From IMG/VR virus record IMGVR_UViG_3300033121_001702: a stretch of 21,507 nucleotides of DNA; one strand, written 5' to 3'. Below are positions 9,001-10,731 of the stretch, piece by piece. A model generated the notes under the pieces. It was not told where the DNA came from. It saw only the letters and a list, made by a program, of their open reading frames with translations, and did not search any database. The DNA is from a virus. Position 1 is the first letter of the stretch. Every line of letters starts with the position of its first letter. A program made the position numbers and the translations under genes.

Positions 9001-9443
9001 AATTTTACTCTTAAGTTTGTTTTAACCTTATTCCACGTTTAGGCTAAAAAAAAGAGTACTCTAAAATGAATACTCTAAATTTATTGAACAAGTGTGATAA
9101 AAGGGTCTTCGCTTATTTACGTGCACGGGAGACACGGAGCTTATTTCTTACACAGAGTCTCATCAGTGAGGATATTTATTTATTACACGATTCTACTCGT
9201 GAAGTTTAGAGATCTTCATCTTTATTCCCTGTGGGTCCTCCTCCAATCCGGGTTTCTCACGATTGGATATTTGGCATTGATATGTAGGTAACCTTTTATC
9301 GTCGGTTCATTGGCTGGGAACACGGCTTCAAACCACGCTTACGAAGAATGACTTCGTTACGATGTTCCCAAAAATTACGATGAGTTTTATCTGACGACAG
9401 TGAGCTACACAAAGAGCTTTATCTATGACATTGAACTACATCG

Positions 9444-9498
9444 TGGTGTCGAAAGAGGGGCGCGAACCCTCATAAGCAGCGGAAAGATAACCTTCAAC
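9444..9498 (-). ncRNA. tRNA-like minihelix: acceptor stem + T-arm + encoded CCA, with no D or anticodon arm
   Basis: Minus-strand read GTTGAAG-(20 nt)-GAGGG-TTCGCGC-CCCTC-TTTCGAC-A-CCA; acceptor stem 7/7 paired (2 GU), T-stem a perfect 5 bp, CCA immediately after the discriminator. Confidence 0.3.
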
Positions 9499-9580
9499 TA
9501 TCGGATCGAATTGCTTCGAGCTAGTTGGCGTTAAAGAGAGACCGACTTGCGTCGAAGCTGCCGTCCTACTTTAGACGATT

Positions 9581-9620
9581 CCGACAAAATATCTCAGTAT
9601 ACGTAATACTGAGATTTTGT
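9581..9620. terminator. bidirectional rho-independent terminator
   Basis: Perfect 9-bp stem TCTCAGTAT-acgta-ATACTGAGA followed by TTTTGT on the plus strand and UAUUUUGU on the minus strand. Confidence 0.55.
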
Positions 9621-9708
9621 CCAAATTTTGTGGAAAATTTAGAGCAGAAACCTTTGATACTGTTCATCAATGGTCACGTCCTGTTTAGGTTAGACGAAAC
9701 CTCACGTG

Positions 9709-9783
9709 GTAGCGAGAGGCTGGATTCGAACCAGCGATTTTTTGGTTATGAGCCAAACGAGATGGCCGCTTCTCTACTCCGCA
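9709..9783 (-). tRNA. tRNA-like gene with anticodon CAU (Met/Ile2 type); probably a pseudogene or a non-canonical tRNA
   Basis: Perfect D-arm (GAGA/TCTC), perfect anticodon stem TTTGG/CCAAA with loop CUCAUAA, perfect T-arm GCTGG-TTCGAAT-CCAGC; the acceptor stem pairs only 4 of 7 (three terminal mismatches). Confidence 0.35.
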
Positions 9784-9875
9784 AAAAAAAATTATTAGTG
9801 AACAAGGAATATCTATAGGATATTATGGTTTTCATTAACAGTGAAAGATAACCTATAAAATTCGGCTCACTTTGG

Positions 9876-9948
9876 CAGGTCCAGGGGGAGTTGAACCCCA
9901 CATTCCAAGATTGAAAATCTCGTGTCCTAACCATTAGACGATGGGCCC
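9876..9948 (-). tRNA. tRNA-Glu (anticodon UUC)
   Basis: Minus-strand read GGGCCCA-TC-GTCT-AATGGTTA-GGAC-A-CGAGA-TTTTCAA-TCTTG-GAATG-TGGGG-TTCAACT-CCCCC-TGGACCT-G; D and anticodon arms are good; one mismatch each in the T-stem and acceptor stem. Confidence 0.55.
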
Positions 9949-10529
9949 AAAACGACTTATCTTATTTATCTGGATCCCTTAGATTTACGTATAATAAATT
10001 ATACAACATTAGGTTACATCCACTCCAGCGAGGCTTCAACCAGTTAAACGATTTGAAAGTGTACACTTTCAAAGTGCGGGTACGAACTTTCGCCTAATCA
10101 GTAAATAAGAATGTCAAAAAAAAAAACGATGAATAAGTGGCGATTTGGAATACGTGCATTGCCCGGGAGTCGAACCCTATTGCACTAGCTGACCGCAGCT
10201 ATAGGCTCTTGTTTATGGTAAGAAATGATAACCCAAATCTATCGATTCATCAAAGAAATATCAAAAAGGGACAAGGAGGCGCTCAAGAAGTTTTTTCATT
10301 CACCACAGCGCAAAGAACAAACCATCCTTCTAAGATGCGGTTGCGCTGGTAGGAGTTGAACCTACTATGTATTAAGTATGAGTTAATTGTGTTATCCGAT
10401 AATCTTAAACTAACGGTCCCTTAAATATGTAAATAAATTTCGTAGAAACACATAAGTAATAATTAGCTTCTTAAAGAGGGGTCCGCTATGAAAAATGGTT
10501 TACTTTGTGTTTCTATGAAACTTATATAT

Positions 10530-10558
10530 AATATAATAAAAACGAACTTATTTGTCAA
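10530..10558 (-). promoter_or_regulatory. sigma70-type promoter P3 upstream of the tRNA-like island
   Basis: Minus-strand read TTGACAaataagttcgtttttatTATATTatatataag; -35 at 10553-10558, -10 at 10530-10535, spacer 17; no ORF downstream, only tRNA-like elements as far as the terminator at 9581-9620. Confidence 0.6.
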
Positions 10559-10731
10559 GTAAAATGACAAAAAAATTATCGAGCTAAAAAGCGATCTATG
10601 GACTTGTATTTCACCCAAAGAAAAGGTAACATAAATCTATCGGCTCGTAAAAACTTATACCAGAAATTTTAGATAAAACGAAGCAGGAAATTAATCCTAC
10701 TTCATTTTTCTTGGCGTCCGAACGACCGAGA

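Follow-up and report, generated by a model that had tools for sequence, protein, structure and literature searches.

A slowly evolving phage locus carries two tRNA genes and apparent tRNA-derived modules that cannot decode

Here, we describe a block of about 1.6 kb without open reading frames (ORFs) in the IMG/VR virus record IMGVR_UViG_3300033121_001702, of which a stretch of 21,507 nucleotides (nt; hereafter, the window) was analysed. The block, at about 10665-9046 (all island elements lie on the minus strand, and coordinates are those of the whole window), carries two genuine tRNA genes together with at least four tRNA-derived modules, denoted A, iii, B, and C, that are unable to decode. 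To judge from its sequence, the locus has sigma-70-like promoters, a strong terminator, and no conserved ORF, and is under strong constraint. The best explanation, to which we would give an even chance of being correct, is that the island is a stable-RNA operon making non-decoding tRNA mimics.

That the odd hairpins of the block are tRNA-derived rather than products of chance is indicated by exact T-boxes in B and iii, a partial match of iii to the Rfam tRNA model, and the retrieval of canonical tRNAs by a covariance model built from A. The T-box GGTTCRANTCC has seven exact matches in the window, where shuffles predict 0.05, and each of them is on the minus strand; five of the seven lie inside tRNAs, and the other two fall in hairpins that had been picked out in a preliminary description of this DNA, namely the T-like hairpin of B, nested within a longer GTGCA...TGCAC stem, and the T arm of iii, followed by an 8-bp stem. 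Both hairpins were seen here, each with an exact T-box. The preliminary proposal that such elements are tRNA pseudogenes rather than chance is thus borne out as far as the tRNA derivation of these two is concerned, but not for its first example, a sequence with anticodon CAU, which is a genuine tRNA. A and C, which are the clearest tRNA-like genes of the island, had been missed.

Slow evolution of the island

The window was compared with one other public genotype (genotype 2), represented by Logan contigs L015, L016, and L017 and by JGI contig L103, which is 99.6% identical to them; another contig, L014, is identical to the window. Only one further genotype was usable because orf138 and the vWA protein encoded upstream of the island each give one close homologue: for orf138, it is the only homologue among 5.8 billion proteins, and for the vWA protein, the remaining matches are cyanobacterial proteins of ~50% identity. 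At the four-fold degenerate sites of three flanking genes, 26/179 positions differ (14.5%), and the flanking coding DNA is 90-96% identical between the genotypes. Across the ORF-free block (10529-9001, indels and one loop excluded), the difference is 24/1348 (1.8%; Fisher P about 1e-12 against the four-fold sites). The island therefore changes ~8 times more slowly than the four-fold sites of the flanking genes and is the most conserved part of the comparable region. Such slow evolution favours functional small RNAs over plain pseudogenes.

The conservation extends to most parts of the block. No substitutions separate the genotypes in tRNA-Glu or tRNA(CAU) (0/76 each), in the 124 aligned nt of B (P 3.7e-9 at the four-fold rate), or in 88 nt of the spacer that follows tRNA-Glu, and there are 2 in 138 nt of A, 1 in 107 nt of the leader hairpin, and 5 in 313 nt of the tail. 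All changes in A affect unpaired positions or convert G.U to A-U. The acceptor hairpin of iii departs from this pattern in its loop: its stem is unchanged (0/16), whereas 13/23 loop positions differ (Fisher P 2.8e-4). This loop (10337-10314) further contains a 3-nt indel and diverges at ~4 times the four-fold-site rate (P 3e-6), within DNA that is otherwise 98-100% identical. Because the loop has changed and the stem has not, it appears that time for divergence has passed and that the stems are being kept. The larger indels of genotype 2 abut both ends of A: a 16-nt deletion stops at its first base, and a 133-nt deletion begins at the CCA of A and ends at that of C. Within genotype 2, L103 and L015 differ at three places: position U8 of iii, which changes from U to C, the variable loop of this element, and the base of the long stem of A (G.U to A-U).

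Several segments are also strongly folded, with minimum free energy (MFE) z-scores of -4.96 for the leader hairpin, -4.2 for the spacer after tRNA-Glu, and -3.9 for C (none of 300 shuffles being equally stable in each case), and -2.0 for both the tail and module B', a hairpin at the head of the block. As a test of tRNA-likeness such scores are useless, the genuine tRNA-Glu giving z +0.57.

Architecture of the tRNA-derived modules

Only tRNA-Phe and A in the window show a stringent signature made up of a fully paired acceptor stem (7/7) with NCCA and an adjoining T arm (5/5) whose loop has TTC; the same scan gave 1 hit in 400 two-strand shuffles (0.0025 expected per window). ARAGORN, run at a lowered threshold, takes A for a tRNA interrupted by a 69-nt intron, and spliced A is called a tRNA at default settings. 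The best non-self matches of the covariance model built from A (R1) are canonical tRNAs from end to end, with tRNA-Phe first (27 bits, E about 1e-5), followed by T4 tRNA-Leu and by tRNA-Arg, tRNA-Tyr, and tRNA-Glu. In genotype 2, G replaces UU directly after the anticodon stem, leaving no U33. We rejected A as an intron-containing decoding tRNA, given that its insert is too short for a group I intron, has no match to RF00028, and that U33 is not conserved. A second 5' strand in A, GUUGAAG (9498-9492), also pairs fully with its 3' acceptor strand and belongs to copy 1 of a 26-nt repeat described below.

Element iii resembles a tRNA(CAU) whose 5' acceptor strand has been displaced. Its anticodon loop (CUCAUAC) and T arm are perfect, the T stem and loop being complete, and CAGCGCAA, directly after the T arm, pairs with TTGCGCTG (10313-10306). 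The acceptor stem is capped by a loop, its 5' strand lying 26 nt downstream of the 3' strand, and hence is not open-ended. A further helix, h1, is possible between AAGGGAC (10422-10416) and GUCCCUU (10272-10266). The Rfam tRNA model matches iii over model positions 8-63 with 20.8 bits (E 0.32; 19 bits in genotype 2) and so falls short of the 29-bit gathering score. Where the window has ACCG, genotype 2 has ACCA. The downstream strand and the next nine bases (UGCGCUGUGGUGAAUG) agree with the 5' end of the tRNA(CAU) family (UGCGGAGUAGAGAAGC) at 11/16 positions, and because of this resemblance, the simplest origin for iii would be a tandem duplication of tRNA(CAU), in which the first copy was deprived of its 5' strand and the second was cut short at about position 16.

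The order of parts in iii, with T arm, 3' acceptor strand, ACC(A), an unconstrained loop, and then the 5' strand, raises the alternative that iii, with or without downstream sequence, is a working permuted RNA, either a two-piece transfer-messenger RNA (tmRNA) or a tRNA(CAU) in two pieces that, once RNase P has cleaved it, would stay joined through the acceptor stem and h1. ARAGORN at a lowered threshold (-m -ps80) does report iii with a permuted, tmRNA-like layout (3' tRNA domain, then 5' domain), the stem is conserved and the loop hypervariable, and two-piece tmRNAs are known in aquatic phages (PMC9004378). However, the acceptor pairs (U1-A72, G2-C71, C3-G70, G4-C69, C5-G68, U6-A67, G7-C66) do not include G3.U70, ARAGORN returns "tag not identified", no Rfam tmRNA-clan model matches, and iii has the full anticodon arm that tmRNA lacks. 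As to a two-piece tRNA, ARAGORN does not recognise the sequence as a tRNA once it is re-permuted, one of the sequences compared has C in place of U8, and h1 is a putative helix without comparative support. Having neither G3.U70 nor a tag, iii was rejected as a tmRNA, and we regard a working permuted RNA of either kind as very improbable.

The T feature of B combines an exact T-box with only 3-4 stem pairs and stands 14 nt away from the acceptor strand. The covariance model from B (R2) finds B alone and no tRNAs, and for this reason, B appears to be tRNA-derived but no longer tRNA-shaped. For element C, a D-armless miniature, covariance models gave no support.

The two canonical tRNAs

Among the island elements, the Rfam RF00005 gathering score (29 bits, full model) is reached only by tRNA-Glu(UUC) and tRNA(CAU), both of which are also called by ARAGORN. 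Use of tRNA finders, as had been proposed, recovers the two tRNAs, with A and iii appearing at a lowered ARAGORN threshold, but A, B, and C go unreported by Rfam. Of all the elements, only iii and the two real tRNAs have an anticodon loop of 7 nt in which U33 is present and position 37 is a purine. tRNA-Glu(UUC) carries G1.U72, C4xA69, and U49xC65.

tRNA(CAU) had been described as a near-tRNA with an acceptor stem pairing at only 4/7 positions. A CAU tRNA is indeed present, but it is not degenerate, the earlier count having ignored U1 and a bulge. With U9783 as position 1, the acceptor stem has six pairs, a U1xU72 mismatch, and a bulged U (CUC-U-CGCU), with A-CCA in register; U1 is at the same time the last U of the run that ends the preceding spacer module. 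Relatives of this gene are present in 61 phage records. In an alignment with the annotated tRNA-Met of six other phages, the family starts with U1 and frequently has a 1-72 mismatch; Vibrio phage phi-ST2 tRNA-Met has a bulged A at the position of the bulge, and the other five have a plain 7-nt strand. The phage tRNA-Met(CAU) family, with members in Vibrio schizoT4-like, Pseudomonas D3, Aeromonas, Alishewanella, Xanthomonas, and Rhizobium phages, is 77-82% identical to the gene at 9783-9707 and shares with it the U1 (or C1) start and the frequent 1-72 mismatch; the gene differs from the family in its A/U-rich anticodon stem (UUUGG/CCAAA). It is a genuine tRNA of a widespread phage family and not a pseudogene. 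The acceptor strands of iii (UGCGCUG / CAGCGCA-ACCA) fit the pattern of the same family, UGCG.../...CGCA-ACCA, although iii, unlike the family, has lost its 5' strand and its D loop is oversized.

Paralogous hairpin modules and a recurrent 26-nt motif

B belongs to a set of three paralogous modules, together with B' and the spacer between tRNA-Glu and tRNA(CAU). They share a layout of outer stem, inner stem, (A)AUAA, and a run of U7-U11, and their alignment shows outer-stem pairs that differ by changes on both sides, e.g., U-A versus C-G. B' is a paralogue of B without the T-arm part and is the same in genotype 2; the sequence TGGTATAAG preceding it may act as a promoter. The spacer module abuts tRNA(CAU).

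This shared layout bears on the possibility that the island is cis-acting architecture only, consisting of partial terminators, entry sites for RNase E, III, or P, or stabilisers that set the amounts and ends of the two tRNAs. The both-sided changes in the outer stems, the junction at which the last U of the spacer's run is the first base of tRNA(CAU), and the strong structure (z -3.9 to -5.0) and conservation of the spacers would all suit such a role. Nevertheless, about 1.3 kb of conserved structure is excessive for 150 nt of tRNA, A and C lie downstream of both tRNAs and hence cannot direct their processing, and a processing signal has no need of the complete acceptor/D/T scaffold and ACCA of A. 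A purely cis-acting island is accordingly improbable in our estimation.

The 26-nt motif GAnCCGATAGnTTnnnGGTTATCTTTC occurs in four copies, all in one orientation and confined to the island, with about 0 expected by chance. Three copies head B', B, and the post-Glu spacer, and the fourth (9507-9482) lies inside the insert of A. The motif contains a TAnnnT -10-like sequence, TATCTT, and could be a promoter or protein-binding box or a mere trace of duplication. Because it recurs across the modules and within A, the island appears to have been assembled by duplication and recombination of its own parts, in agreement with the preliminary suggestion of relics of recombination at tRNA genes, to which the tandem-duplication remnant iii also conforms.

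The same observations could be taken to mean that the elements are neutral debris of tRNA-gene turnover, i.e., truncated, fused, and permuted pieces, perhaps transcribed, whose similarity between genotypes reflects recent ancestry or block exchange. The motif copies occupy differing structural contexts, iii reads as one copy of tRNA(CAU) that lacks the 5' strand, joined to ~16 nt from the start of another, and A is chimeric, with two alternative 5' acceptor strands; moreover, an 11-nt fragment of the tRNA-Arg 5' end is found upstream of tRNA-Tyr elsewhere in the window, C is missing from genotype 2, and Rfam does not score A, B, or C. Against debris, however, the block has diverged ~8 times less than the four-fold sites, and the coding DNA next to it has also changed more. 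Nor would recent wholesale transfer be expected to yield a 26-nt loop that is 56% diverged within near-identical DNA, or indels that respect the borders of elements, and all four elements have NCCA or NCC after an acceptor-like stem. On balance, we consider neutral debris unlikely, though it is the principal rival reading.

Extent and signals of the island

The ORF-free block is larger than the interval of about 900 nt given in the preliminary description: no ORF of at least 40 amino acids (aa) in it retains its length across the two genotypes, as had been supposed, but its limits are the terminator of the vWA gene (about 10700-10670) and the strong terminator at 9076-9046. P3, previously singled out as a strong promoter, stands up well, since it matches 11/12 consensus positions and its hexamers are the same in genotype 2, where 3 substitutions all fall within the spacer. 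A TATAAT box upstream of tRNA-Glu, kept in genotype 2, is a possible second promoter. The hairpin at 9581-9620 that had been taken for a bidirectional terminator bracketing the island does exist, but it does not serve as a boundary: A starts 6 nt after it and the block continues to 9076-9046. Only 3/10 of its pairs are G-C and its tail is AUUUUG, making it weak as an intrinsic terminator, and its 3' half is lost to the 16-nt deletion in genotype 2, so that it is not conserved. The tail of the block matches no Rfam family. An 8-codon mini-ORF, MKISKLHE (9219-9193, minus), follows GGAGGAGGA...AGGGAA within the tail (9310-9077). The sequence CUGAUGAG at about 9165 was considered as a hammerhead ribozyme and dropped for want of an Rfam match.

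Table 1. Features of the island and the genes upstream of it.
Feature	Position	Strand	Description
Window genes		minus	All credible genes
MVP-like gene	12271-14865	minus	Vault_3 and MVP shoulder domains; PDB MVP matches, E 6e-10
TerC/YkoY-family membrane protein gene	11451-12158	minus	
vWA (TerF-like) gene	10732-11385	minus	
Module B'	10566-10662	minus	Extended -10-like TGGTATAAG (10662-10654), ~80-nt hairpin, U7 run; hairpin and U-run module 10648-10566; outer stem CGAGC 10647-10643 / GCUCG 10584-10580
P3 promoter-like site	10530-10558	minus	TTGACA-17-TATATT, 11/12 consensus positions
Leader hairpin	10435-10523	minus	Imperfect, ~24 bp, arms 10523-10506 / 10452-10435 (inverted repeat I1)
Element iii	10266-10422	minus	tRNA(CAU) relative, 5'-replaced or "permuted"
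iii, 5' part	10412-10371	minus	U8 10412; then D region; anticodon arm AUUAA-CUCAUAC-UUAAU 10387-10371
iii, T arm	10365-10349	minus	GTAGG-TTCAACT-CCTAC, then directly CAGCGCAA (10348-10341)
iii, 3' end	10348-10339	minus	Acceptor strand CAGCGCA 10348-10342; A73 and CC 10341-10339
iii, loop and 5' strand	10337-10306	minus	Hypervariable loop 10337-10314, then 5' acceptor strand (U)UGCGCUG 10313-10306
Element B	10116-10251	minus	Outer stem GAUGAAU (10251-10245) / AUUCAUC (10134-10128); U11 run 10126-10116 after the leader/trailer stem
B, cloverleaf	10239-10138	minus	102 nt; acceptor-like GAUUUGG / CCAAAUC (7/7 pairs), then G-CCA; arm 1; anticodon-position arm AGCUG-CGGU-CAGCU with 4-nt loop, no anticodon
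B, composite T-like arm	10185-10154	minus	GUGCA..GGG-UUCGACU-CCC..UGCAC; inner hairpin GGG-TTCGACT-CCC 10177-10165
TATAAT -10 box	9998-10003	minus	No clear -35; 50 nt upstream of tRNA-Glu
tRNA-Glu(UUC)	9873-9948	minus	ARAGORN; Rfam 48.9 bits; G-CCA encoded
Spacer module after tRNA-Glu	9783-9871	minus	Outer stem AGUGAGC 9871-9865 / GUUCACU 9803-9797, then AAUAA and U run
tRNA(CAU), Met or Ile2 type	9707-9783	minus	ARAGORN (9782-9711); Rfam 52.3 bits; A73 and CCA encoded
10-bp hairpin	9591-9615	minus	Overlaps promoter-like TGGACA-16-TATACT
Element A	9444-9585	minus	142 nt; acceptor GUCGGAA/UUUCGAC (7/7 pairs), then A-CCA; D arm GUCU-AAAGUA-GGAC, resembling that of tRNA-Glu; "anticodon" stem 5-6 bp
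A, insert		minus	76 nt replacing the anticodon loop; GCAA-tetraloop hairpins 9554-9543 and 9519-9506; helix CAACUA/UAGUUG (consensus fold)
A, T arm	9471-9455	minus	GAGGG-UUCGCGC-CCCUC, 5/5 stem, directly before the 3' acceptor strand
Element C	9311-9370	minus	60 nt, D-armless mini tRNA-like; acceptor UGGGAAC/GUUCCCA (7/7), then G-CCA; arm ACGAAG-UCAUU-CUUCGU, with CAU in a 5-nt loop or a 7-nt loop GUCAUUC with U37; T-like arm (C)GUGG-UUUGAAG-CCGU(G), loop UUUGAAG, 4-5 pairs including wobbles
ORF-free tail	9046-9310	minus	Ends in intrinsic terminator AGAGUAUUCAUUUUAGAGUACUCU and U8 (9076-9046)
26-nt motif copies	10646-10621 (copy 4), 10248-10223 (copy 3), 9868-9843 (copy 2), 9507-9482	minus	Spacing 361-398 nt

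Genomic setting, likely host, and relatives

The products encoded on the minus strand of the window include ThyX, an endonuclease VII-like protein, an AAA ATPase, a denV-like glycosylase, S-adenosylmethionine decarboxylase, a LysRS-like class II synthetase, a TerC/YkoY membrane protein, the vWA protein, and an 864-aa MVP-type protein. The nearest cellular homologues of the vWA protein, ~50% identical, come from Nostocales and other filamentous cyanobacteria. Given these cyanobacterial homologues and host-like genes, the source is a large lytic-type phage, probably of filamentous cyanobacteria.

Among 50,697 phage records searched with blastn, there was no DNA resemblance to the region except at tRNA-Glu and tRNA(CAU). 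Exact-pattern scans for pieces of A, B, and iii found none in IMG/VR viral contigs and, for iii, none in genome contigs, whereas a 17-mer of the T arm of A had 84 genome-contig hits, mostly of high GC content; the cyanobacterial one (L019), the one inspected, was unrelated. A pattern scan of metagenome contigs returned one true relative, genotype 2 (L103), and two unrelated hits. The IMG/VR relatives found through the vWA protein (L001-L013, 38-49% identity) do not resemble the island in DNA sequence, and models R1 and R2 found no counterpart of A or B in them. In one of these distant relatives, L001 (IMG/VR 3300011338_000863), the vWA gene is preceded by a gene for a DUF2828/DUF7788 protein and followed by a tRNA cluster (Phe, Asn, His, Trp, Tyr), with an RNA ligase 2.7 kb further downstream. 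Between its tRNA-Phe and tRNA-Asn, a 178-nt segment (6830-7008) has a 7-bp stem, GUUGCCG/CGGCGAC, and a T-like arm, CCAGG-UGUGAAC-CCUGG; its loop is non-canonical and its fold (z +0.46) is no better than that of shuffles, making it a weak lead.

The MVP-like, TerC/YkoY-family, and vWA genes are three neighbours in a phage; the ORF listed for the first (12271-14910) overlaps tRNA-Phe (14941-14866), so that its true start must lie further downstream. Their position upstream of the island leads to another alternative, in which the tRNA fragments would be RNA partners of the vWA and MVP-like genes in a particle of the Y-RNA or vault-RNA type or, instead, a phage attachment site (attP). B, with its outer stem, internal T-box, and U run, is similar in layout to such RNAs, and in L001, too, tRNAs follow a vWA gene that neighbours the DUF2828/DUF7788 protein and RNA ligase genes. 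Yet there is no YrlA or Y RNA covariance match in the island and no TROVE/Ro gene in the window, and in Aphanizomenon, the vWA homologues are not linked to MVP, TerC, or tRNA genes; B was rejected as a vault or Y RNA on these grounds. With regard to attP, such sites often include a 3' portion of a tRNA gene, and only the 5' strand is missing from iii, but the 24-mer comprising its T arm and acceptor strand has 0 exact matches in 185,579 representative genomes and in IMG/VR, and there is no integrase domain among the window proteins scanned; iii as attP is therefore without support. We hold either version to be highly doubtful.

Other RNA-related features were observed outside the island. ARAGORN and Rfam together identify five tRNAs and one group I intron in the window. 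Both programs missed a split tRNA at 17148-16300 (minus), with exon 1 GCUGCGGUAGUCCAACUGGUAGAGACAAGGGACU (17148-17115) and exon 2 UAAAAUCCCUCC...CGCGGCA (16342-16300) separated by a group I intron of ~772 nt (Rfam core 16638-16373) that contains an HNH-endonuclease ORF (17100-16378). With default settings, ARAGORN identifies the joined exons as tRNA(UAA), although their short variable loop is unlike that of a normal tRNA-Leu. The LysRS-like class II synthetase (19954-21168, minus; 404 aa) is nearest to lysine-tRNA ligase (NCBIfam E 2e-123, below the equivalog cut-off) and shorter than bacterial LysS; the window has no tRNA-Lys gene. A second P3-type promoter (534-506, minus; TTGACA-17-TATATT, the same hexamers) heads another ORF-free leader, upstream of tRNA-Tyr (534-362). 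This leader contains the 11-nt copy of the tRNA-Arg 5' end, GCCCCAGUAGC (454-444), a terminator-like hairpin with U6 at about 400-375, and, directly before tRNA-Tyr, the box TGGTATAAGTT (372-362), which also precedes module B'.

Comparison with known tRNA-like RNAs

Phage tRNA clusters have been known since the 1970s to hold tRNA-like stable RNAs, such as T4 RNA C and D. The closest precedent for the island elements is T4 RNA C (species 1 RNA, rnaC). Folded from the T4 record, this 139-nt RNA lacks an anticodon loop and combines an acceptor-like terminal stem and enlarged arms with a canonical T arm beside the 3' strand, which is the same plan as that of A (142 nt) and approximately that of B, with terminal stem, T arm, enlarged arms, and no anticodon. 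The genes for T4 RNA C and D lie within the phage tRNA cluster on the tRNA strand, just as A, B, C, and iii are arranged around tRNA-Glu and tRNA(CAU). Nevertheless, there is no sequence similarity to rnaC or rnaD, and models R1 and R2 give no match on either. In A, moreover, the D arm is normal and the expansion affects the anticodon arm, and T4 RNA C ends in ...CGUA, not in an encoded NCCA like A, B, and C. The T4 host lineage is unrelated, and T4 is the one case in which expression has been shown. The resemblance is architectural and is not demonstrated homology. The role of T4 RNA C is still unknown (PMC3014915).

Element iii shares the order of 3' strand with ACC(A), intervening segment, and 5' strand with the two-piece tmRNAs of alpha-proteobacteria, some cyanobacteria, and aquatic phages and with the permuted tRNA genes of red algae. 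Apart from the tmRNA hallmarks considered above, it differs from the algal genes in having its break at position 7/8 and in not being recognised as a tRNA once re-permuted; to our knowledge, the splicing machinery that algae use for permuted tRNAs is absent from bacteria. As in tRNA genes with group I introns, of which this phage has a real example in the split tRNA(UAA), the insert of A sits exactly at the anticodon loop. However, at 76 nt it is too short for an intron core, has no Rfam match, and leaves no conserved 7-nt anticodon loop that could be restored.

YrlA, the MHV68 tRNA-like RNAs, and mascRNA are non-decoding RNAs with tRNA-like modules (T arm, acceptor-like stem, CCA) that are matured by tRNA-processing enzymes. 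Unlike for YrlA and Y RNAs, there is no covariance match in the island and no Ro/Rsr gene in the window, and the MHV68 RNAs and mascRNA, which are eukaryotic or viral, have no sequence relation to the island elements.

Proposed mechanism and implications

If the island is indeed a stable-RNA operon, its modules would have arisen by duplication and recombination among the phage's own tRNA genes and would be co-transcribed with the two tRNAs. Since the acceptor stem, NCCA, and T arm are retained, we infer that RNase P and the 3'-end/CCA machinery could cut the modules out, leaving discrete small RNAs that would build up and resemble the "top half" of a tRNA without reading codons. Such mimics would play no part in translation and may instead compete for, or titrate, tRNA-binding proteins, be they host tRNA-directed defence nucleases or processing or modification enzymes. 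Phage tRNAs can counter tRNA-cleaving defences (PMC10264068, PMC10802454, bioRxiv 10.1101/2023.03.15.532788), and because of this precedent, competition for tRNA-binding proteins is, speculatively, the most likely role.

Several observations weigh against an operon of tRNA mimics. A, B, and C are not reported by the Rfam tRNA model even at E up to 10, and iii scores below its threshold; the T loop of A (UUCGCGC) is without A58, the model built from B retrieves no tRNAs, and U8 of iii is not invariant. C lies in the 133-nt CCA-to-CCA cassette absent from genotype 2 and is dispensable there. B is a member of a family of hairpin and U-run modules that look more like terminators or processing hairpins, and a decayed tandem duplication would be expected to leave just such a piece as iii. 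Across the two genotypes and the 99.6% variant, no compensatory double change is seen in any pair within an element, the "spacers" are conserved as strongly as the elements, and the low divergence could stem from a recent exchange of the block in its entirety and not from selection acting on the individual RNAs. Finally, no tRNA-targeting or RNA-repair gene was found in the window.

A more specific version of the proposal holds that the island makes a set of mimics, comprising the A scaffold with its branched two-GNRA domain, a two-piece or loop-closed tRNA(CAU), and a D-armless mini-tRNA, which would act as decoys or sponges for the tRNA-directed immunity of the host or for enzymes that handle tRNAs. 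Although we would attach only a small probability to this version, its truth would define an RNA-based class of counter-defence that would also explain T4 RNA C.

An unrelated, cyanophage-like virus thus seems to hold tRNA-like genes at different stages of remodelling, with the anticodon loop replaced, the acceptor closed, or the D arm lost, and these genes are near-invariant while adjacent synonymous sites drift. If they are expressed, non-decoding tRNA mimics would arise repeatedly and be selected in phages, and the island would provide defined substrates for RNase P, the CCA enzyme, and tRNA-cleaving defence nucleases. Standard tRNA finders miss these elements as well as the intron-split tRNA of the window, suggesting that the tRNA repertoires of phages are under-annotated.

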